From a virus, in IMG/VR virus record IMGVR_UViG_3300012971_000014, positions 1-39,174 of that record: a stretch of 39,174 nucleotides of DNA; one strand, given 5' to 3'. The notes below the pieces were generated by a model. It searched no databases and was not told the DNA's origin. It was given only the letters and a program-made list of their open reading frames with translations. Position 1 is the first letter of the stretch. The number at the start of each line of letters is the position of its first letter. Positions 2,863 through 17,224 of this stretch are shown here, piece by piece. Position numbers and translations under genes: made by a program.

Positions 2863-4398
2863 CTAGCGACGCGACTTGCGCCGGGGGGCATCGGTGGGGG
2901 TCTGTAGCGCCGCCGCCAGCTCGAGAGCGCGCGCCGTGTCCCCGGATCGGATCGCCGCCTGGAGCTCGTCTAGGGGCGACGTACCCACGATGGGTACGTG
3001 ATCCGTCAATCTGGCGCGATCTAGGGGTATGACATTCGCATCGTCCTCGACGGCAACCGGTGAATTCGGCCGATCTTGCGTACCCTGAAAATCGGCTTCA
3101 AGAACCGGTCCCTGCGATTGTTTCTGCCAACGATTCAAGGTGTTTGGGAACCGCGTACCCACCGGCGTACCCAGCCCCGGATTGTCCGCGTCGCTGAGCT
3201 CGAAACGAAGTTTGGCCACCTCGCGGCAGTATCCTGCCCACTGAGTGCGTAGATACCCGGATGCGACGTCGCGCGGCTCAGGGTGGATGATGCGCTCGAT
3301 CACCGGCTCGATCGCACCCGACTCGACGATGAGCTCGGTTTTCCACCAGCTGCGAAAGTCGTGCCCGCCTCGGTTGCGATACATGCCGGCGCGGATGCGG
3401 AGGCCGAGCTTCGCAAGATCCTGGAGAAAGAACTCCTGCGCATGGCGCACGTTGCATGGCGTCCCGTTCCTCGTCGGAACGATGAGATCGTCGGGCCTCG
3501 GCGCGCGCCCGTATGTCTGCGCCCAGCCGCTCGACCACCAGGAGTCGAGGATGATCGCCAGCGTCGCATGCACTGGAAAGGAGTACGTGCGCTTGGTTTT
3601 TGTCTCCCACTCTCGCGCCAGCGTCGAGGAAAAACCCGTCGTCGCGCGCAGGCGCCCCAGCGGCTGCCAGGGCTTGCCGGCGCGCTCGTAGTCGCGCCAG
3701 CGTCTCGGCGCGGCGTCGGCGTGGCGCGCGCCCGAGAGTGCCTTGATGGCATACATCACCCGTCGGTCGGGCTGGATCCGCGGATCACAGATGAGCCGGC
3801 GCACCTCGTCGGTCGTGTACGTCGCGAGGTCGCGCCAGTCCTTATCCTTGTCGCCCTTTGGCGGCAGCGTGTTGCGCGGCAGGTCGGCCCATGGGCGCTC
3901 GCCGTCGGCGAGGACGCCGCGTTTCAGCGCCATGGCTTTGAGAAAAATGCGGAAGGTCCCATAGATGTTCCAAATGTAGTTTGGTGCGCGGCCGGCGAGC
4001 TTGAGCGCGGTGATGAGCTCGACGACGGTGTTCGACGTGAGATCGGCCATGAGCATGTCGCCGATCAGCATGCCGCCGCCGGTCCTCGTTGCGTAGATGA
4101 GGTTCATGCGCGTGCGCTCGTTGTTCACGTCGCCGAGGTGCCCGGCGCGCTGGAGCTCGAAACGCCCGTCCAGCCAGCGATCGCCGCATTTCCTGACGGT
4201 GAGCGGGCCGTCGACGTTGGCGGTGCGCCGCTTGGCGGCAAGTTTTTCCCACTGGACCGCGTAGCGCTTTGCAAGTGTCTCCTGGCCGTCACCCTCGTAA
4301 AAGTCGGTCTTGAGGTTCTGGCGCTTGCCGTTCTCGTCGCGGATTTTCATCCAGAACCGTCGAGGCGGACGCGATCCGCGCAGGAATACCGAGGCCAT
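2863..4398 (-). CDS. int: Tyrosine recombinase / phage integrase (511 aa) with a long C-terminal extension
   Basis: Catalytic-domain pattern recognised by eye: LSGARHADA (box I Arg), GGHDFRSWW (H-x-x-R) and HPEPRDVASGYLR (His and Tyr nucleophile region). About 125 further residues follow the Tyr. Sits downstream of excisionase-like and RHH genes. Confidence 0.93.
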   Translation of the reverse strand: MASVFLRGSRPPRRFWMKIRDENGKRQNLKTDFYEGDGQETLAKRYAVQWEKLAAKRRTANVDGPLTVRKCGDRWLDGRFELQRAGHLGDVNNERTRMNLIYATRTGGGMLIGDMLMADLTSNTVVELITALKLAGRAPNYIWNIYGTFRIFLKAMALKRGVLADGERPWADLPRNTLPPKGDKDKDWRDLATYTTDEVRRLICDPRIQPDRRVMYAIKALSGARHADAAPRRWRDYERAGKPWQPLGRLRATTGFSSTLAREWETKTKRTYSFPVHATLAIILDSWWSSGWAQTYGRAPRPDDLIVPTRNGTPCNVRHAQEFFLQDLAKLGLRIRAGMYRNRGGHDFRSWWKTELIVESGAIEPVIERIIHPEPRDVASGYLRTQWAGYCREVAKLRFELSDADNPGLGTPVGTRFPNTLNRWQKQSQGPVLEADFQGTQDRPNSPVAVEDDANVIPLDRARLTDHVPIVGTSPLDELQAAIRSGDTARALELAAALQTPTDAPRRKSRR

Positions 4399-4608: not shown

Positions 4609-4977
4609 TTAGCGTTTTTTGGCGAGCTTCGCGGCAAAATCCTCGTCGGCCAGCTCCTCTGGTGACTTTCTCGATCCGCGCCGAGGGGCATCGCGCCGGC
4701 CATGCTCGAGAAGATCGGCCAGATCGCTTTTCTTGAGGCGCACGATGCGATCGTCGCCGTAGCGTGCTAGGCGGCCCGCTTTGATCCACTTTCTCACCGT
4801 GGCTCGAGACACACCGGCGAACGCGGCCGCCTGGGCGACCGTCATGAACTCGTCGGGCCCGGCGCCGGCAGCGGCCTCGCTATCGGCGAGGCAATCGAGG
4901 AGCGCGGCGCCGAGCTCACCCAAGGCATCGCGGAGACGTTCGCGCGGCGTGCCTCTATTCCTCGTCGACGAATTCAT
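4609..4977 (-). CDS. Excisionase-like / MerR-type HTH DNA-binding protein (122 aa)
   Basis: MTVAQAAAFAGVSRATVRKWIKAGRLARYGDDRIVRLKKSDLADLL is the typical excisionase/HTH_17 pattern. Lies immediately upstream of RHH and int. An alternative start is ATG 4845. Confidence 0.75.
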   Translation of the reverse strand: MNSSTRNRGTPRERLRDALGELGAALLDCLADSEAAAGAGPDEFMTVAQAAAFAGVSRATVRKWIKAGRLARYGDDRIVRLKKSDLADLLEHGRRDAPRRGSRKSPEELADEDFAAKLAKKR

Positions 4978-10453: not shown

Positions 10454-10635
10454 AGGTCCCGTCGCCGACGCCATGCGAGCTTTGCGGGGCGCGTCGCTTC
10501 TATCGTCGGCCGCCGCCGCGCTGCCGGCGCTGCTACCACGCGATTCGCCGCGCGCTCCTCGCCGAGCGGCGGCGCGCTGAGCTCGTCGGCGCGCTCATCG
10601 GCCAGGCGGCGCTCGAACTGGAGACCAGGCCATGA
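10450..10635 (+). CDS. small zinc-ribbon protein (61 aa; CELCG...CRRC)
   Basis: ATGA overlaps at both ends (10450 and 10632). Two CxxC pairs. Confidence 0.65.
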   Translation: MKVPSPTPCELCGARRFYRRPPPRCRRCYHAIRRALLAERRRAELVGALIGQAALELETRP

Positions 10636-11381
10636 CTTGGGAGCTGCGCGCGTCCGATTGCCTCGACGCCGTGTCCGGGCTTGCGTCGCTCGCCGATGCG
10701 TCGGTGGATTCGATCCTGACGGATCCACCCTATTCGGCGGATCTCTATACGCGCACCGCGACGAACAAGGGCCGAGAGGGATTCACGCAGGGGGAAAAGG
10801 CGCGGATGATCATAGCGTTCACACTGGCGAGCGGGCGCATCGGGGCGGTCGACGACATCATCGAGCCATGCGCCGCCGAGTTCATGCGCATCTGCCGGCG
10901 GTGGATGCTCGTCTTCTCGGACATCGAGATCGCGCCGCGATGGCGCGCCGCACTTGGCGATTGGTATCTGCGCACTGGCGTTTGGGTTAAGACCGATCCC
11001 ATGCCGCAAATCACCGGCGACCGGCCGGCGCAGGGATTCGAGGCCTGCACCATCGCGCATCGCCCGGGAAAGAAGCGATGGAACGGCGGCGGCCGCGCGG
11101 CTGTCTGGACGCATGGAACCGGCAAGGGTGCCGCGCGGCCGAATCACCCTTGCCCTAAGCCGCTCTCGCTCATGACCGCACTCGTCGAGGATTTCACCGA
11201 TCGCGGCGAGCTCATCTGCGACCCGTTCGCCGGCTCAGGCACGACCGGCGTTGCCGCCATCCGCGGCGGCCGGCGCTTCATTGGCTGGGAGAGAGATGCG
11301 CAATATGCCGAGACCGCGCGCCGCCGCCTGGCCGACGCCCGCGAGCAACTGTCTCTCTTTGCCGCCGCATCCGATTCGTAG
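10632..11381 (+). CDS. DNA methyltransferase, beta-class N6-adenine/N4-cytosine family (DPPY type; 249 aa)
   Basis: Motif IV SILTDPPYS precedes NHPCPKPLSLM and motif I CDPFAGSGTTGVAA. This order and the DPPY motif are typical of beta-class N6A enzymes. Confidence 0.92.
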   Translation: MTWELRASDCLDAVSGLASLADASVDSILTDPPYSADLYTRTATNKGREGFTQGEKARMIIAFTLASGRIGAVDDIIEPCAAEFMRICRRWMLVFSDIEIAPRWRAALGDWYLRTGVWVKTDPMPQITGDRPAQGFEACTIAHRPGKKRWNGGGRAAVWTHGTGKGAARPNHPCPKPLSLMTALVEDFTDRGELICDPFAGSGTTGVAAIRGGRRFIGWERDAQYAETARRRLADAREQLSLFAAASDS

Positions 11382-11389
11382 GAGTCGCT

Positions 11390-11602
11390 ATGTCGCCAGC
11401 GATCAAAGCCATTGCCCGTCATTCTTGGCAGCGCGCCTCCGACCCGTGGCACGCGGTCTGCGCCTCCTGCGGGCTCGAGCGGCGCGGGCGCGGACGGGCG
11501 GCGCGCCATGGGACGCGGCGCATCTGGATCGAGGAGTACAGCCGCGACGGGGCGACATGGACCGAGGCCAGGGTGCCGGCGCCATGCACGGGGGCGAGAT
11601 GA
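11390..11602 (+). CDS. hypothetical small protein (70 aa)
   Basis: GGAG at 11381-11384 lies 5 nt before ATG 11390. Sequence MSPAIKAIARHSWQRASDPWHAVCASCGLE... Confidence 0.6.
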   Translation: MSPAIKAIARHSWQRASDPWHAVCASCGLERRGRGRAARHGTRRIWIEEYSRDGATWTEARVPAPCTGAR

Positions 11603-11603
11603 C

Positions 11604-12563
11604 ATGGCTCTGCGTGCCCTGTCTCTCTTCTCCGGCGTCGGCGGGCTCGACCTCGCCATGCGACGAGTGGGCATGCGCACCGTGTGTTACGTCGAACGGG
11701 AAGCTTACGCCGCGTCCGTCCTCGTGGCCCGGATGGCGGATGCGTCCCTGGATCCGGCTCCTGTCTGGGATGACGCTTGCACCTTCGACGGCGAGCCATG
11801 GCGTGGCCGAGTGGATTGCGTCTTTGGCGGATTCCCCTGTCAGGACATCTCCCTCGCAGGGCGAGGCGGTGGGCTCGACGGCGAGCGGTCGGGTCTATGG
11901 CGCGAGTATGCCCGCATCGTCGAAGCCGTTCGCCCTGAGATTATATTCATCGAGAATGTGCCCGCACTGGTTAAGCGCGGGCTCGATCGAGTTCTGTACG
12001 ATCTGCATGTCCTCGGGTTCGATGCGGAGTGGGATCTGTTCTCTGCCGCCGACGTCGGCGCCACGCACCGCCGGAAACGACTCTTCGTTCTGGCCTACTC
12101 CGATCGCGGCCTCCGCTGGCTACAATCAAGGTGGATCGGCGGGGAGGGTGGGGCCGAAGCGATACAGCCTGCACGCGATCGAGAAGCTGTGGCCCACGCC
12201 CATAGCACGCGAGGGCAACCGCCCGCGAGAGGGCGGTCCTTCGCTCGGTTATCTGGTGACGAGGATGTGGCCGACGCCGACGGCAGACGACGCCAAGCAG
12301 AGCGGAGCGGCTGGCTACTCGACGGCGAGCGGCAGGCACGCGGGTACCACCCTGACGGATGCTACGTGCCGTTCCCCCCTGCACGAGACGATGGCAACGG
12401 GTGGCGAGCCTACCTCGACCGGTGGCCGGGTCTTGAACCCTCGCTTCGTCGAGGCGCTCATGGGCTTGCCCATCGGATGGACCGACTGCGCGTCCTCGGA
12501 AACGCCGTCGTACCTGCGCAGGCCGAGCATGCATTCCGCAAGCTCGCCAAGCGGTGCGGGTGA
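11604..12563 (+). CDS. DNA (cytosine-5) methyltransferase; the central third is only recognisable in the +1 frame (frame-disrupted or mis-assembled)
   Basis: The frame of ATG 11604 carries FSGVGG (I), GGFPCQDIS (IV), IFIENVP, HRRKRLFVLAY and the terminal LGNAVVP (X, 12495-12515). Interval 12091-12483 shows three WPTP boxes and LNPRFVEALMGLPIGWT only in the frame of ORF 11251..12567. Confidence 0.8.
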   Translation: MALRALSLFSGVGGLDLAMRRVGMRTVCYVEREAYAASVLVARMADASLDPAPVWDDACTFDGEPWRGRVDCVFGGFPCQDISLAGRGGGLDGERSGLWREYARIVEAVRPEIIFIENVPALVKRGLDRVLYDLHVLGFDAEWDLFSAADVGATHRRKRLFVLAYSDRGLRWLQSRWIGGEGGAEAIQPARDREAVAHAHSTRGQPPARGRSFARLSGDEDVADADGRRRQAERSGWLLDGERQARGYHPDGCYVPFPPARDDGNGWRAYLDRWPGLEPSLRRGAHGLAHRMDRLRVLGNAVVPAQAEHAFRKLAKRCG

Positions 12564-14153
12564 GTGATGGCGCGCCGCCACCAAGAGCCGCCGCATGCGC
12601 TCGTCGACGCCGAGCACTCGGTCATCGGCTGCGTGCTCCTTCGAAACGAGGTCGTGGCGCGCGTGCACCTCGACCCGTCGGACTTCGTGCACCCGATCCT
12701 CGGGCGCATTTGGGCGGCCATCCTCGAGCTTGACCGCGCCAAGCAGGGCATCGACCCCATCACCATCTGCAACCGGCTAAATGGCCTCGCGGATAAGGCG
12801 ACGATGGTGCTCCTCGACTGCCAGAGCGCCGTACCGACGTCGGATAACGTGGAGTTCTACGCGGAGATCGTGGCGACTGCGGCGCTCGAGCGAAAGCTCC
12901 GAGAGAACCTCGCCGACGTGTCCTCGGACCCGACGCTCGGGGCACCGGAGATTCTCGAGCGCGCGCAGCGCGTGATCGATGCACTCACGCCGCCAGCCAT
13001 CGGGCCGGCAATCGCGCACGCGCGAACGGCCGAGGATCATGTCGACGCGATCCTGGCGCGCGCCTCGGAGCCTTGGGTGTGCCTCGGCATCGGCGGCCAG
13101 GAGATCGCGCGCCTGCGCCTCGGATCATTCGCCGTCGTCCTCGGCGGCACCGGCGCCGGCAAGTCGAGCCTCGTCGGCTCGCTCCTCGCCGAGCATGCGC
13201 AGCTCCACGGGCCGGCGATGTATCTCAGTCTCGAGCTTGGCGCCGACGAGATGATCGCGCGGCTTATCGGTATGACCGTCGGCGCATCTTGGGAGGATGT
13301 GCTCTGCGGCCGAGTGCCGCGCGATCGGATGGTGGCGTCGGTCCCCTTGCGCCTCGACGTCCGCGATCGCGACGTCGATGATGTGGCGATTTGCCAGCTC
13401 GCGCCGCTCGTCGAGAAAGCCCGCGCCGAGTTCCCCGGCGAGCCGATCCTCGCCGCCGTGGATTATATCCAGCTCGCCGCCGTGGCTGGCCCTGATCTGC
13501 GAACGCAGATCGCCGCCGTCGTCGAGACCATGCGCGCCGTCGCGCGGCAACTGCGCATCGTTCTCATCGGCGTCTCGCAGACGAGTCGCGCGGCGGCGAC
13601 CGGGCTCCGCCACGGTGATCTCGTCGGCGCCGACACCATGGCGCTCGGCGCGGAGTCGTCGGCCATCGAGCGCTGCGCCTATCTGACGCTCGCCATCGGT
13701 GCGCATGGCGACGCCCGCGAGGATGGTTCGGCGCCGGTCGAACTCCACATCGGCAAGGCGCGCATGGGCGGCGGCGACCGTCTCTTGCCGATGGAGTATC
13801 ACGGCAAGTCGGGCCTCTGGCGCGTCGCTGGCCCCAGCCGCTCAGCATCCGATGTGCGCGCCGAGCACTCGGCGCATCGATCCGAGCAACGCGCGCAAGC
13901 GGATAGAGATGCGCTCGTCGCTGCCGCCGCCCGCGCAACGGCGCCCCTGTCTCGCGAGCAACTCCGAGCGTCGACGGGGATCAGCCGTCCGCATGCAACT
14001 GTCGCCTTTGCCGCGCTCCTCGCCGATGGCGCGCTCGTGGAGTGCGAACGTGCGCACCGATCGGGTGCGCGTCTCCTGTGGACACCTGAGCGCGCCAGGG
14101 AGCGCGCGATGCGGTTTACGCCGGATCGCATTGGCAACAAGGAGGATGACTGA
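12564..14153 (+). CDS. DnaB-family replicative helicase with an extra C-terminal winged-helix-like domain (529 aa; ATG at 12567)
   Basis: DnaB N-terminal pattern PPHALVDAEHSVIGCVLL...ILGRIWAAI. Walker A VLGGTGAGKSSL, DYIQL, IGVSQTSR and GKARMGG. About 100 additional residues follow the RecA-like core. Confidence 0.9.
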   Translation: MMARRHQEPPHALVDAEHSVIGCVLLRNEVVARVHLDPSDFVHPILGRIWAAILELDRAKQGIDPITICNRLNGLADKATMVLLDCQSAVPTSDNVEFYAEIVATAALERKLRENLADVSSDPTLGAPEILERAQRVIDALTPPAIGPAIAHARTAEDHVDAILARASEPWVCLGIGGQEIARLRLGSFAVVLGGTGAGKSSLVGSLLAEHAQLHGPAMYLSLELGADEMIARLIGMTVGASWEDVLCGRVPRDRMVASVPLRLDVRDRDVDDVAICQLAPLVEKARAEFPGEPILAAVDYIQLAAVAGPDLRTQIAAVVETMRAVARQLRIVLIGVSQTSRAAATGLRHGDLVGADTMALGAESSAIERCAYLTLAIGAHGDAREDGSAPVELHIGKARMGGGDRLLPMEYHGKSGLWRVAGPSRSASDVRAEHSAHRSEQRAQADRDALVAAAARATAPLSREQLRASTGISRPHATVAFAALLADGALVECERAHRSGARLLWTPERARERAMRFTPDRIGNKEDD

Positions 14154-14164
14154 TGCGTTGCGTT

Positions 14165-14313
14165 GAAGTGCCGCCCAGTGACGCCCAGTGCCGCCCCGGG
14201 CGTCACTACCCAGTCTCCACGACTGCCGCCCGCTGCTCTTTAAGAGCGGGCGGGAGTCAGTGGGTAGTGCTTCGGGCGGCTGTTTCAAACGACAGCCGCC
14301 CGGGCGGCACTTC
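14165..14313. other. 149-nt nested four-arm inverted-repeat/iteron element (candidate replication origin, structured RNA or MITE)
   Basis: Perfect complementary pairs read directly: 14165-14176/14302-14313 (12 bp), 14177-14186/14198-14207 (10 bp), 14204-14212/14261-14269 (9 bp), 14221-14234/14245-14258 (14 bp, 1 mismatch) and 14273-14283/14292-14302 (11 bp). Three tandem 10-mers AGTG(C/A)CGCCC at 14167-14196. Confidence 0.6.
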
Positions 14314-14324
14314 GATGCGGGTGG

Positions 14325-14780
14325 ATGCGGTTCATGGGAACTGAAGACTTTGGGGGCCCGCGTTCGCTCATGCGTGCGGCCGCATTGTACGGGTGGCAAC
14401 TGCGGCCCACTGCGGCCGGGTTCGCCATGGATCCGGCCGAGCGCGCCGATGCAGCCGCGTCCCCGGCCATCCAGATGCCCGAGGAGCTGACGGCGGCGAT
14501 GGATGCGCACGCGACGCGCATCAGGGAGCTCCTCGTCGACGATGTGCGTTTTGAGATCGCCAGCATGATCGCCGGCGTCATCCGCGGGCGCACCGACTTG
14601 CCACCCATCGAGCCGACGGACCGCGTGCGTGCACTCAGGGGCAATCTGGATACTGAGGCTGCAGCGTACGATGCGGGCGCCAAGACGCTCTCGGAGCTGC
14701 GCGCCGCCATCCGCGCGCTTGAGCAAGCCCTGAATCTTGAGACCGCCGTGGCGCGGCGCCAGCGACGGACGGGCAAGTAA
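14325..14780 (+). CDS. hypothetical protein (151 aa; alternative start ATG 14427 gives 117 aa)
   Basis: The ORF-track protein has a helical C-terminal half (RVRALRGNLDTEAAAYDAGAKTLSELRAAIRALEQALNLE). Start is ambiguous. Confidence 0.55.
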   Translation: MRFMGTEDFGGPRSLMRAAALYGWQLRPTAAGFAMDPAERADAAASPAIQMPEELTAAMDAHATRIRELLVDDVRFEIASMIAGVIRGRTDLPPIEPTDRVRALRGNLDTEAAAYDAGAKTLSELRAAIRALEQALNLETAVARRQRRTGK

Positions 14781-14799: not shown

Positions 14800-15174
14800 A
14801 TGGGCAACGAACCATTTCGCGAATGTCCGCGATTCGACGCCTGCAGTTGCAACGTGTGCCCGCTGGATCCGCTGGCGCATCTGCGCGACGCGCTCGGCGG
14901 CGAGGAGGAATGTCGCGCGACGCGCTCGACGAGAGAGACGATCGCGGCGAGACATCTCGGCGTGCTGCCATCTGGCGGCCGCCTACCGCATGAGATCGCA
15001 CGGGACAAACGCCGCGCCTCATGGGCAGCGCTGCCAGAAGACCATCCCACCAAGGTTGCGCTGCAGATCGGGCGCCGCTCGTTCCGCAAACGCGATTTGC
15101 CCACGCCCAAAAAGGACGGGACCCAATCAGCCGAGCCCGATGGCCAGATCGTCGGTCGGGATAAAAATGCGTGA
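14800..15174 (+). CDS. hypothetical Cys-rich protein (124 aa)
   Basis: Internal ATG 14800 of ORF 14737..15174, preceded by GGGAGGAGGG (14784-14793). Sequence MGNEPFRECPRFDACSCNVCPLDP... Confidence 0.7.
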   Translation: MGNEPFRECPRFDACSCNVCPLDPLAHLRDALGGEEECRATRSTRETIAARHLGVLPSGGRLPHEIARDKRRASWAALPEDHPTKVALQIGRRSFRKRDLPTPKKDGTQSAEPDGQIVGRDKNA

Positions 15175-15685
15175 GAACCCTGTTACTGTAACGACGCTTA
15201 CAACCGAGCCGCTCCTGCGGTTTTTCGTGCCGGGCACGCCGCGCGCGCAGGGATCGAATCATGTCGCGGGCGCGACCAAACAGGGCCGCTTGTTTGTGCG
15301 CGTCACCGACGGTGCCGAGCTCACGAGCTGGCGCAAGTCGGTCGCCACTGTCGCGCGCGCCGCCATGCTCGACGCCCGCGTGCGCCTCGTCGAGGGCGCG
15401 CCGATCTTCGGGGTGCTCACGTTCACGCGCCTGCGCCCGCGCGCGCACCTGAACGCGGCCGGCGATATCAAACCCAAGCACGCCGCCAGTCTGCCAATCA
15501 CCAAACCCGATTACGATAAGCTGGCGCGCGCCGTGTCCGATGCATTGACCGGCGTTTTCTATCGCGACGACGCCCAATGCACGACGATGCTCATTCGCAA
15601 GCGATTTGCTCAATGCCAGGGCGCGCTCGTCGAGCTTTGGTTCGATCACTCGGATCCCGATTTTGCCGTCGAGGATAACCGATGA
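15167..15685 (+). CDS. rusA: RusA-family Holliday junction resolvase (172 aa)
   Basis: Internal ATG 15167 of ORF 14990..15685. KPDYDKLARAVSDALTGVFYRDDAQC matches the RusA catalytic signature (PDxDNL.K..lDaL....y.DD.q). Confidence 0.88.
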   Translation: MRENPVTVTTLTTEPLLRFFVPGTPRAQGSNHVAGATKQGRLFVRVTDGAELTSWRKSVATVARAAMLDARVRLVEGAPIFGVLTFTRLRPRAHLNAAGDIKPKHAASLPITKPDYDKLARAVSDALTGVFYRDDAQCTTMLIRKRFAQCQGALVELWFDHSDPDFAVEDNR

Positions 15686-16746
15686 TTCGCGCACCGTTCC
15701 CCTATTTCGGCGGCAAGTCGTCGATCATCGATATCGTCTGGCAACGTCTTGGCCGTCCAAAGCAATACATTGAACCTTTCTGCGGATCGGCGGCCATCCT
15801 TCTCGGCGCGGCGGCGCCAGCATCACTTGAGGTCGTAAACGACATTAATGGATTCATCGCCAATTTTTGGCGCGCCACGAAATATCAGCCGGGGGATGTT
15901 GCCAGATGGGCAGATTATCCGGTGAGCCATATCGATATCGGCGCGCGACACCGCTGGCTCATGGAGCAACGTGCGCGCATCGGCGACGCGCTCCTTGAGC
16001 CGGAATGGCCTGGCGATGCCAAGATCGCAGGATGGTGGTTATGGGGGCAATGTTGCTGGATTGGATCTGGCTGGTGTGAGTGGCTCGGCAAGATTCCACA
16101 CGTGAGCGACGCAGGCAGGGGCATTCAGGCCATCGGCAAGATCCCATACGTGAGCAGCGCAGGCATGGGCATTCATGCCATCGGCCAGATCCCACACGTG
16201 GGCGACGCAGGCATGGGCATTCATGCCATCGGCAAGATTCCACACGTGAGCGACGCAGGCAGGGGCATTCAGGCCATCGGCAAGATTCCACACGTGAGCG
16301 GCCCAAGCATGGGCGCTATGCTGACATCCGCTGGCCGCGTGGCATGGTATCAACTGCATCGCATCGCCGACCGTCTCGAGCGCGTGCGAATTCTCCACGG
16401 CGACTGGCAGCGCTGCCTAAATTCTCATTATGGCGCCACCAATACTGCTGTCTTTTTCGATCCGCCATATGCTGGGAATGAGGAGATATATCGCACGGAT
16501 CCCGTCGCGCCAATCGTCGAATCATGGGCGAAAGAGAACGCATGCATGCGCATCGCCCTATGCGGCCTCGTCGGCGATTACGACTTGCCAGGCTGGGAGA
16601 TCGTACGATGGTCGCGCGACCGACATACTTACGGGAGCAACAAAACGACGCGTATGGAGGCGATATGGTTCTCCCCTGCGTGCGCGCCGCCTATGCAGGG
16701 TGACCTTTTTTCGATCGTGAGGGAATGCAATGCGCAAGATGATTGA
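15682..16746 (+). CDS. D12-class (Dam-like, alpha-order) N6-adenine DNA methyltransferase with internal 16-aa tandem repeats (354 aa)
   Basis: N-terminal PYFGGKSSI...YIEPFCGSAAILLG (motif I region) and C-terminal FFDPPYAG (motif IV). The repeats GKIPHVSDAGRGIQAI lie between them. Confidence 0.9.
   Translation: MIRAPFPYFGGKSSIIDIVWQRLGRPKQYIEPFCGSAAILLGAAAPASLEVVNDINGFIANFWRATKYQPGDVARWADYPVSHIDIGARHRWLMEQRARIGDALLEPEWPGDAKIAGWWLWGQCCWIGSGWCEWLGKIPHVSDAGRGIQAIGKIPYVSSAGMGIHAIGQIPHVGDAGMGIHAIGKIPHVSDAGRGIQAIGKIPHVSGPSMGAMLTSAGRVAWYQLHRIADRLERVRILHGDWQRCLNSHYGATNTAVFFDPPYAGNEEIYRTDPVAPIVESWAKENACMRIALCGLVGDYDLPGWEIVRWSRDRHTYGSNKTTRMEAIWFSPACAPPMQGDLFSIVRECNAQDD
16087..16320 (+). repeat. 48-bp in-frame tandem repeat, 4 full copies plus a diverged fifth
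   Basis: Copies at 16087-16134, 16135-16182, 16183-16230 and 16231-16278, with a partial from 16279. Copies 1 and 4 are identical, and copies 2 and 3 differ from each other at 4 positions. Confidence 0.95.
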
Positions 16747-17224
16747 ACACGGTCAATACGCGGCGCCCTGGCGCGACCGCGAAGGAGGCGAGGAATACAA
16801 TCCTGTCTCGGTGCGCTCCGGCCGCCAAGTCGCCCAATCGCGTGCCGAGCGCGATTACGCCGAGTCCATCGACGCCATTCCCACCGACGAGCATCCGGCC
16901 GGCGGCCTATGGGATCACGCGCAAGAACCGCGCGCGCTCGCCGCTGCGAGTCCGCGCCCGGTCCATCCATCACAAGTGCCGGCGCCGCGCTACGATGAGA
17001 AACCGATGCGCCGATTCGTCGAACGCCATGCTTCGGAGCTCCCGCTCGGCGACCTCGACATCTTCATGTGGTTTTGGCACGAGCGCCGCTCGTATTCGGA
17101 CATCGCCAGACAGACAGGCAGCGATCGCGAGATGATCAGGCAGCGCGTCAAGCGATTGCGCCATCGGCTCAACGAGCGTTGGCCGCCGTCGCATTGCCCC
17201 AAAACCCGTGGGTCAAATCTCTAG
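16730..17224 (+). CDS. putative late-gene regulator with sigma-70 region-4-like HTH (164 aa)
   Basis: LPLGDLDIFMWFWHERRSYSDIARQTGSDREMIRQRVKRLRHRLNE resembles sigma region 4 / LuxR-type HTH. Located between the replication/nin-like genes and the packaging genes. Confidence 0.55.
   Translation: MRKMIEHGQYAAPWRDREGGEEYNPVSVRSGRQVAQSRAERDYAESIDAIPTDEHPAGGLWDHAQEPRALAAASPRPVHPSQVPAPRYDEKPMRRFVERHASELPLGDLDIFMWFWHERRSYSDIARQTGSDREMIRQRVKRLRHRLNERWPPSHCPKTRGSNL

Follow-up and report, generated by a model that had tools for sequence, protein, structure and literature searches.

What is the function of a dense cluster of repeats that directly follows the gene of a replicative helicase in an uncultivated virus? 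The question is raised by positions 14,154 to 14,324 of the IMG/VR virus record IMGVR_UViG_3300012971_000014, a metagenomic scaffold whose entire 39,174 bp are the window analysed here. An initial annotation had described the region as a perfectly nested inverted-repeat element with four arms, lying just downstream of a DnaB-like helicase, and had suggested an iteron-type phage origin, with a structured RNA or a transposon-like insertion as alternatives. We confirm the repeats, and comparison with relatives supports the origin reading of that annotation: the region is an ordered array of a short word, set around a central palindrome, whose counterparts stand at the same place behind related helicases. 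Judged from sequence comparison, it is very probably a protein-binding iteron array functionally tied to the neighbouring helicase. It is also likely, from comparative sequence and structure prediction, that the array is the replication origin of the phage and is read by the helicase's own winged helix. The origin proposal is supported by synteny, by the architecture of the array, by the co-variation of word and domain and by a winged-helix model.

In the window, nine 10-mers of the form A(G/C)(T/A)G(C/A/G)CGCCC are found in both orientations, +14 to +158 nt past the helicase stop codon (Table 1). All five matches of AGTGMCGCCC across the 39 kb fall inside the array (0.15 expected), and so do all six matches of the looser word ASWGSCGCCC (1.25 expected). 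The left part of the array is oriented + + + -, the centre consists of a + copy, the palindrome and a - copy, and the right part follows as - + -. The TTTAA of the palindrome is the sole A/T-rich spot. The tandem AGTG(C/A)CGCCC triplet on the left, which had already been reported, is present, as are two further tandem 10-mers, ACTGCGGCC(C/G), at 14399-14418. These near-iterons may be auxiliary sites, and their membership of the array is uncertain. The word ACTGCGGCC occurs four times in the window against 0.57 expected, two of the four being the tandem pair; the pair lies 88 nt past the main array, and its word is identical to the main iteron of the relative L123. Directly past the array, at 14314-14332, GATGCGGGT and GATGCGGTT stand in tandem with 10-bp spacing, and a third copy lies inside the helicase gene (14108-14116). 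The word GGATGCGGT is the iteron of the relative L142 in inverted form.

The stems from which the four-arm element had been drawn all exist. The outer stem (14165-14176 with 14302-14313) pairs at 12/12 positions and can be extended to 17 nt at 88%, the two hairpins are perfect (14177-14186 with 14198-14207, 10/10; 14273-14283 with 14292-14302, 11/11), and the long arm is closed by a perfect stem (14204-14212 with 14261-14269, 9/9) around 14221-14234 with 14245-14258 (13/14, the mismatch being G-G). Their nesting was somewhat overstated: two stems have 14204-14207 in common and two have 14302 in common, so the stems cannot all form together. What is conserved is the arrangement of words and not the cloverleaf, which is a by-product of the word array.

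Table 1. Features of the helicase gene and the adjoining word array (positions in the window).
Feature	Position	Strand	Basis
DnaB-type (superfamily 4, SF4) helicase gene, 528 aa	12567..14153	+	Pfam, PHROG and PDB matches
C-terminal extension of the helicase, aa 425-528: long linker helix, then winged helix; proposed iteron reader	13839..14150	+	AlphaFold2, Foldseek
63-codon open reading frame across the whole array, with an ATG that shares bases with the helicase stop (TGATG)	14153..14344	+	
Whole proposed origin, nine iterons around a central palindrome	14165..14313	.	Repeats and architecture common to relatives
Iterons 1-3, tandem direct, AGTGCCGCCC / AGTGACGCCC / AGTGCCGCCC, starting at 14167, 14177 and 14187; 10-bp period (one helical turn)	14167..14196	+	
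Iteron 4, inverted, AGTGACGCCC on the minus strand, directly past the tandem triple	14198..14207	-	
Iteron 5, ACTGCCGCCC, left flank of the central palindrome	14222..14231	+	
Central palindrome GCTCTT-T-AAGAGC, A/T core TTTAA at 14239-14243	14235..14247	.	Read from sequence
Iteron 6, inverted, ACTCCCGCCC on the minus strand, right flank of the central palindrome	14248..14257	-	
Iteron 7, inverted, ACAGCCGCCC on the minus strand	14274..14283	-	
Iteron 8, ACAGCCGCCC	14292..14301	+	
Iteron 9, inverted, AGTGCCGCCC on the minus strand	14302..14311	-	
Two tandem near-iterons, ACTGCGGCC(C/G), 10-bp period, one mismatch from the main word	14399..14418	+	

Our comparison is based on 37 non-redundant loci that encode relatives of the helicase. 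The homologues come without exception from metagenomes and are 23-57% identical to it in tblastn alignments. A blastn search of phages and plasmids with the 201-nt element region and the 3.1-kb helicase region returned no match, which says nothing on conservation because the relatives are too diverged as DNA. A scan of viral contigs for close relatives of the helicase found none.

The element is conserved in these relatives: an array of words stands in synteny directly after the helicase stop codon. In most of them it begins 0-35 nt past the stop and spans 100-170 nt, and a common order can be recognised. The left part has three direct copies spaced 10-11 bp apart, often with an inverted one after them; in the middle a G+C palindrome with a short A/T centre stands between a direct and an inverted copy; and the right part has additional copies, most of them inverted. 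The order of three + copies and then a - copy is also found in L001, L123, L128, L142, L153 and L160. In L001, the closest full-length relative (helicase 55% identity), the word ACTGCCGCCC(G) runs from the helicase stop codon on, with four tandem copies at mostly 11-bp spacing (9, 11, 11) and then more direct and inverted copies. The same position is taken by ACTCCCGCCCG in L122 and by ACTGCGGCCCG in L123, the array word of L133 is ACTCGGTTCC, and the variant ACTCCCGCC of iteron 6 in the window is the main iteron of L122. The numbers of plus and minus copies are unequal among the relatives and their order is variable, and the four-arm fold is not conserved.

These observations can be put in numbers. 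The most frequent locus-specific 9-mer in the 350 nt past the stop, counted by script, has 6-9 copies in most loci compared with typically 3-4 in an in-gene control. A strict tandem triple within -12 to +170 of the helicase stop is found in 18 of the 37 loci, against an expectation of 0.005 per such interval derived from the rest of the same loci. A perfect palindrome of >=6 bp with an A/T-rich centre at +20 to +200 is present in 24/37 loci, where 0.055 would be expected. This palindrome search was restricted to A/T-rich centres; it replaced a search for the best hairpin, which had returned hairpins between iterons. The palindrome of the window itself, with its 1-nt centre and shifted registers, fails the strict filter and was identified by eye. 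The centres in the relatives are 3-7 nt of A/T, for example TAGT, TTTA, TTAA and GTA. One locus departs from the pattern. In L124 (3832-4060; helicase P0007) the helicase has a different C-terminal tail and the array has a longer word, CACCTCGGCGC, with a perfect 16-nt inverted pair and without a tandem triple; this may be a swap of domain plus origin.

The identity of the word is specific to the locus. Among the relatives we find ACTGCCGCC, ACTGCGGCC, GACTGCGCA, ACTGCCGTC, ACTCGGTTC, AGGTCGTTC, TACTTTCCC, GACCGCTCC, GACTTGTCC and others, most of them with a 5' ACT or one of its near variants (AGT, ACC, AGG) and many with ...CC at the 3' end. We compared the Hamming distances between words with protein divergence in 25 loci by Mantel test. 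The word distance correlates with the distance between the winged-helix segments of the helicases (r=0.50, Mantel p<=2e-4) and not with that between their ATPase cores (r=0.10), and the partial correlation with the winged-helix segment is still 0.50 when the core is controlled for. As far as these sequences go, the divergence of the word appears to track the C-terminal domain and not the ATPase core.

The helicase itself is clearly of the DnaB type. A DnaB N-terminal domain (aa 10-104) is followed by a RecA-like ATPase core (aa ~185-403) and then by additional C-terminal sequence. Pfam reports DnaB (PF00772, 4.4e-17) and DnaB_C (PF03796, 5.7e-11), the best PHROG is number 19 (DnaB-like replicative helicase, 9e-37), and a PDB sequence search aligns aa 7-412 with full-length bacterial DnaB, with chains at E 2e-15 over aa 7-402. 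The Pfam families together with the alignment to full-length DnaB establish that the motor is a RecA-fold SF4 protein. The start codon is the ATG at 12567, with which the product is 100% identical to P0001; an exact-sequence look-up of the protein, whether from a GTG start or as P0001, found no record.

The initial annotation had pointed to an extra, winged-helix-like C-terminus of the helicase. The extension is real, with ~115 residues past the part that aligns with DnaB. An AlphaFold2 model built from an 18-sequence alignment gives the C-terminal domain a pLDDT (predicted local distance difference test) of 89.5 and the topology H-(S)-H-H-S-wing-S. The top 50 PDB structures listed by Foldseek are mostly winged-helix DNA-binding proteins (MarR, SlyA, ScpB), with a modest best E of 5.5e-3 at prob 1.0, and Pfam gives a weak match to an AlkZ-like, tandem winged-helix family (E 1.9e-4). 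We are confident in the prediction that the domain is a winged helix. The aligned domains keep their hydrophobic core and the R-S...W-T-P wing motif and vary most in the N-terminal half of the predicted recognition helix. A profile search with the domain matches no more than 213 of 1.84 billion cluster representatives, so the helicase family is rare. Among the 150 best matches listed, the domain is at the extreme C-terminus in almost all, and most of these proteins have 390-790 residues, with the shorter ones looking like fragments.

The position of the winged helix at the extreme C-terminus stays constant whichever N-terminus the family member has. Common to the homologues are the ATPase core and a C-terminal stretch of ~100 conserved residues; the N-termini vary. 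The window helicase, P0002 and P0018 have the DnaB N-terminal domain (DnaB_N), P0004 and P0010 a Prim-Pol N-terminus, and P0005, P0008 and P0023 a Zn-ribbon/Toprim N-terminus, while P0003 and P0007 are short helicases with a separate primase gene just upstream. This suggests that helicase, winged helix and origin move as a module, because the core with its winged-helix tail occurs together with three or more unrelated solutions for the primase, N-terminal or upstream. Of the genes around the array, the helicase alone is a conserved neighbour. The upstream genes differ among the relatives, and the two ORFs (open reading frames) immediately downstream in the window have a counterpart in none of them. 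A RusA gene further downstream in the window recurs in L131, L136 and L157.

One point about the position of the array needs correction. It is not simply intergenic but lies inside an ORF that is translationally coupled to the helicase. In the window this ORF is preceded by AGGAGGA (14140-14146) and ends just within the region where the next ORF starts (14325/14334). In 31/37 loci the stop of the helicase gene shares bases with a start codon (ATGA in 22, GTGA in 7, TTGA in 1 and TGATG in the window), and the coupled frame is open for >=140 nt in 26 of these 31, compared with 9/31 for the other available frame. The frame is thus open across the array in most loci, so that the array is translated in most family members. 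We considered the ORF as a real protein and rejected this: in the window it has no Pfam match and no coding-type pattern in GC3 (G+C content at third codon positions), and across the loci we see no conserved peptide by eye, save for stretches dictated by the shared iteron DNA. The peptide is probably not functional in itself, and it seems, from the pattern of open frames, to be translation through the array that is kept. There are two possible explanations. The origin might simply be embedded in coding sequence, like the lambda ori in gene O, or the passage of ribosomes might keep a very stable mRNA structure open for the downstream genes.

In two relatives (L133:3820-4485 and L146:3640-4341) the coupled ORF runs into a phage Dam-type N6-adenine methyltransferase (PF05869). 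In L133 the match begins near residue 63, immediately past the array, and a ~60-aa N-terminal extension of the enzyme thus appears to be encoded by the iterons. In L146 the matched stretch begins at residue 127, and no start codon is seen in the stretch directly past the array. In the window, the next ORF (14325-14780) has a weak GC3 coding signal in its 5' part, where the ACTGCGGCC pair sits, and its true start may be near 14428.

How would such an array work? Bacterial DnaB rings are the textbook example of a helicase that cannot find or open the origin without an initiator (DnaA, lambda O or a plasmid Rep, for example), and usually they also depend on a loader (DnaC, DnaI, DciA or lambda P). 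We propose that the window helicase is a self-loading initiator-helicase, and from the sequence comparison we infer binding, melting, self-loading and origin activity along the following lines. The winged-helix domains of the helicase subunits would attach to the phased iterons along a single face of the DNA and in opposed orientation around the palindrome. With three direct copies one turn apart plus an inverted copy on the left, and mostly inverted copies on the right, helicase assemblies could form on both sides. The centre of the palindrome would melt or be extruded as hairpins, exposing single-stranded DNA for the ring to encircle, and the DnaB-type ring would assemble on the exposed single strands with no need for a separate initiator or loader. 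The DnaB-type N-terminal domain would then recruit the host primase, a role that in the relatives might fall to the fused or adjacent Prim-Pol or Toprim primase, and the host replisome would follow.

Several points weigh against this model. DnaB-type rings need single-stranded DNA, and the array has no extended A/T-rich unwinding element, just a 5-nt A/T core. We know of no DnaB-family helicase with a DNA-binding domain of its own through which it loads itself at an origin. Translation of the array in most relatives is something that a simple version of the model does not require. The correlation between word and winged helix is based on word registers set by hand, and it is confounded by linkage: the coding sequence of the domain lies in the ~300 nt next to the array, and because the two are physically adjacent their co-inheritance would be expected even without any interaction. 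A tblastn search with the helicase core and C-terminal domain found no match at 1e-8 in 50,697 phage and 72,556 plasmid records, which leaves the family with no annotated or cultured reference. GC skew has no inflection at 14.2 kb in the window. Phage skew is dominated by transcription, and skew is uninformative here because the operon lies on one strand.

The alternatives to a duplex-binding origin have to be weighed against the same observations. Folded as RNA and as single-stranded DNA, the array is in both forms far more stable than its shuffled versions. As RNA it has a minimum free energy of -115.9 kcal/mol (z = -7.7) and as single-stranded DNA a z of -7.4, with 0/200 shuffles equalling either. 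A structured RNA in the transcript of the helicase operon, acting as a stabiliser in the 3' untranslated region, a processing site or a regulator of downstream translation, would account for this stability and for stems that change sequence between relatives yet stay complementary. Moreover, the region is transcribed within the operon and crossed by the coupled ORF, so that mRNA structure must matter for expression here. We nevertheless regard this explanation as very improbable. The minus strand folds almost equally well (z = -7.4, again 0/200 shuffles; the plus strand is ~10 kcal/mol more stable), since the same word stands in both orientations. The third tandem repeat (14187-14196) keeps the word though it is unpaired in the loop of the predicted fold, and a phasing of 10-11 bp is meaningless for RNA. 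Rfam gives no match at gathering thresholds anywhere in the window. The stem mismatches (3 G:T, 2 A:C and 4 other) have no G:U bias, which is weak evidence with n=9, and the one in the long arm of the window is the G-G pair. In the relatives the number and order of + and - copies vary, so the four-arm fold is not kept. The hairpins are not ordinary terminators either, as had been noted from their lack of U-tracts: the intrinsic terminator scan has no plus-strand site and one weak minus-strand match within shuffle expectation, and we rejected this reading for want of a G+C hairpin with a U-tract on the coding strand. A promoter scan found nothing on the coding strand. A related idea is that the stem-loops, rather than duplex iterons, are recognised as single-stranded DNA signals for priming, primosome assembly or a rolling-circle double- or single-strand origin. 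The central palindrome invites this reading: it is kept as a palindrome in the relatives while its sequence changes, and as a single-stranded hairpin (14215-14265) it has -21.7 kcal/mol and z = -7.1. The origin of the plasmid pRN1 is likewise a ~100-nt stem-loop downstream of a primase-helicase gene (PMC4234260). Yet three tandem direct copies cannot all pair, the plus and minus copies of the relatives are unequal in number, and the ORFs scanned include no rolling-circle Rep (HUH) gene. We consider such a signal unlikely to be the whole explanation, although hairpins may be part of the proposed mechanism through extrusion at the centre.

An insertion similar to a MITE (miniature inverted-repeat transposable element) or REP (repetitive extragenic palindromic) element had been suggested by the perfect 12-bp terminal inverted repeats and by GATGCG on both flanks, read as a target-site duplication. 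Both GATGCG copies are real (14152-14157 and 14314-14319), but they do not make a clean duplication: the left one shares bases with the TGA that ends the helicase gene (14151-14153), and a third copy of the word stands close by. In its longer form GATGCGGKT it has three local copies (14108, 14314 and 14324), and the window-wide count of 3 against 1.4 expected is not significant. Both terminal arms are simply iteron copies, and the 10-mer is found nowhere else in the window. The search of phages and plasmids by blastn returned no copies, and none stands beside a non-helicase gene among the loci listed. In the relatives this site is not empty but has an array of the locus's own word, from which it follows that the array is ancestral and not inserted, and we give an insertion almost no credence. 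The triple-iteron pattern with which a genome collection was scanned proved too generic: at least 120 loci match, nearly all of those listed being generic GCCGCCC tandem repeats, 93 of them with a 12-bp period, and none of those listed is beside a helicase relative or has the array architecture. One candidate from a Solirubrobacteraceae genome, L018 with ACTGCCGCCCC x4, was rejected as a plain tandem repeat without inverted copies or a helicase. The array might, finally, be a cis-acting protein-binding site that is not an origin, serving copy control or handcuffing, roadblock regulation, partition or packaging. The data demonstrate that a protein-binding word array is linked to a helicase gene, which by itself does not say what binding does; further helix-turn-helix proteins are encoded in the window (4609-4977; 16730-17224), and binding to a translated array within the operon could modulate downstream expression. 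Still, the one gene conserved beside the array encodes a replicative helicase, the DNA-binding domain of that helicase varies together with the word, and opposed repeats around a palindrome 3' of a helicase gene match experimentally defined origins of SaPIs, the Staphylococcus aureus pathogenicity islands (PMC9371898). The terminase region is far off, at ~19-21 kb, and the neighbours scanned include no ParA/ParB-type gene. We therefore think a function other than an origin unlikely.

If the array is an origin read by its helicase, its closest known counterparts are the Rep-ori systems of the SaPIs and of other phage-inducible chromosomal islands (PICIs). The SaPI Rep helicases bind 6-12 iterons directly downstream of rep via a C-terminal winged helix, and these iterons are oppositely oriented on either side of the origin centre (PMC9371898). 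A similar layout was proposed for the Enterococcus phage Abitsa (PMC13517437). The likeness extends to the use of the helicase as initiator, the C-terminal winged helix, the opposed iterons directly downstream, the specificity of the iterons for each element and the primase that is fused or adjacent in some members (PMC9371898; PMC13517437). The differences are just as evident. The SaPI Reps are AAA+ proteins (SF3 or SF6, 3'-5'), a motor that the window helicase does not have, being a RecA-fold SF4 protein with a DnaB N-terminal domain. The iterons measure 5-6 nt in SaPIs, against units of 10-11 bp in the window family. SaPI origins have a substantial A/T-rich centre, while the window family has a G+C palindrome with a 3-7 nt A/T core (5 nt in the window), and the window array is inside a translationally coupled ORF. 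The search for relatives of the helicase returned DnaB_C/AAA_25-type proteins alone, in a comparison that did not include SaPI Rep itself.

Other systems share parts of the design. The gp-alpha of phage P4 has a C-terminal winged helix for origin binding and is likewise a primase-helicase-winged-helix initiator that reads repeated words (PMC4889955). Relatives of the window helicase carry an N-terminal Toprim or Prim-Pol in the same position as its primase. However, gp-alpha is an SF3 (D5-type) helicase with no sequence relationship to the window helicase. The P4 ori and crr sites, with their iterons, are not known to lie directly after the alpha gene. The ORF904 of pRN1 comes from an archaeal plasmid and combines prim-pol, SF3 helicase and winged-helix parts; its origin has no identified iterons and requires the stem-loop itself, in contrast to the window family, whose conserved unit is the repeated word. 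Lambda-type origins resemble the array in having helically phased iterons inside a translated frame of the replication operon. In lambda the iterons are 19-bp inverted repeats, all in one gene and beside an A/T-rich region, and O is a separate initiator that recruits the host DnaB through the P loader, while the window system apparently fuses the initiator to the helicase. Complexes of O with its iterons have been described (PMC7466680). The SV40 large T antigen and papillomavirus E1 are hexameric helicases with their own origin-binding domain and with opposed words around a central palindrome where two hexamers assemble (PMC9894130; PMC4889955). They belong to eukaryotic viruses, are SF3 AAA+ proteins and have an origin-binding domain derived from an HUH endonuclease, so the resemblance is an analogy only.

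This comparison raises the question whether the module belongs to a class of its own. A survey of viral replication proteins gives fusions with origin-binding domains for SF3 and a C-terminal winged helix for SF6 and DUF3987 (PMC4889955). For SF4, its text gives just stand-alone, DnaG-fused and AEP-fused (archaeo-eukaryotic primase) forms (PMC4889955). Our full-text literature search, whose coverage is incomplete, returned no described DnaB-type helicase with its own origin-binding domain. The layout is known for other helicase classes and apparently not yet described for the DnaB type. We tentatively suggest, at somewhat less than an even chance, that this is an undescribed class of replication module, in which an SF4 ring helicase provides its own origin recognition and loading and has a tripartite origin in a coupled ORF. 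The three parts we propose are the 3+1 phased iterons, the iteron-flanked palindrome with its A/T core and the opposed iterons. On this suggestion the module may be a convergent, bacterial-type counterpart of T-antigen, E1, SaPI Rep and P4 alpha, and may be interchangeable with at least three kinds of primase front-end.

The phage is most likely temperate, as the contig carries an integrase (2863-4398, minus strand). The plus-strand operon contains N6/N4 and C5 methyltransferases, the helicase, the two unknown ORFs, RusA and a D12 methyltransferase. Three methyltransferase genes thus flank the module (N6/N4 at 10632-11381, C5 cytosine at 11412-12563 and D12 adenine at 15682-16746), and adjoining methyltransferases are found in some relatives as well (N6_N4 in L167, Dam in L133 and L146). 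In the RusA-domain ORF (14990-15685), ~80 extra N-terminal residues precede the RusA domain (aa 81-214), and these may be due to a miscalled start or to an additional domain. A recurring intergenic element that is unrelated to the array was seen in Gemmatimonadales/Gemmatimonadota contigs (L011, L038, L053, L069 and L081), with three tandem (A/G)GGCGGCAA facing three tandem TTGCCGCCC at 10-bp spacing; in these five assemblies no helicase relative is nearby.

For annotation, the probable origin of a group of uncultivated soil phages can be placed at the array, and ORFs called over iteron arrays of this kind need care. If self-loading is true, the helicase gene and its array would be a compact replicon of two parts, one gene and ~150 bp, for high-G+C bacteria, and a natural system in which to study the loader-free assembly of a RecA-fold ring on DNA. 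It would also provide ~25 matched pairs of protein and word in which the evolution of winged-helix specificity could be followed.

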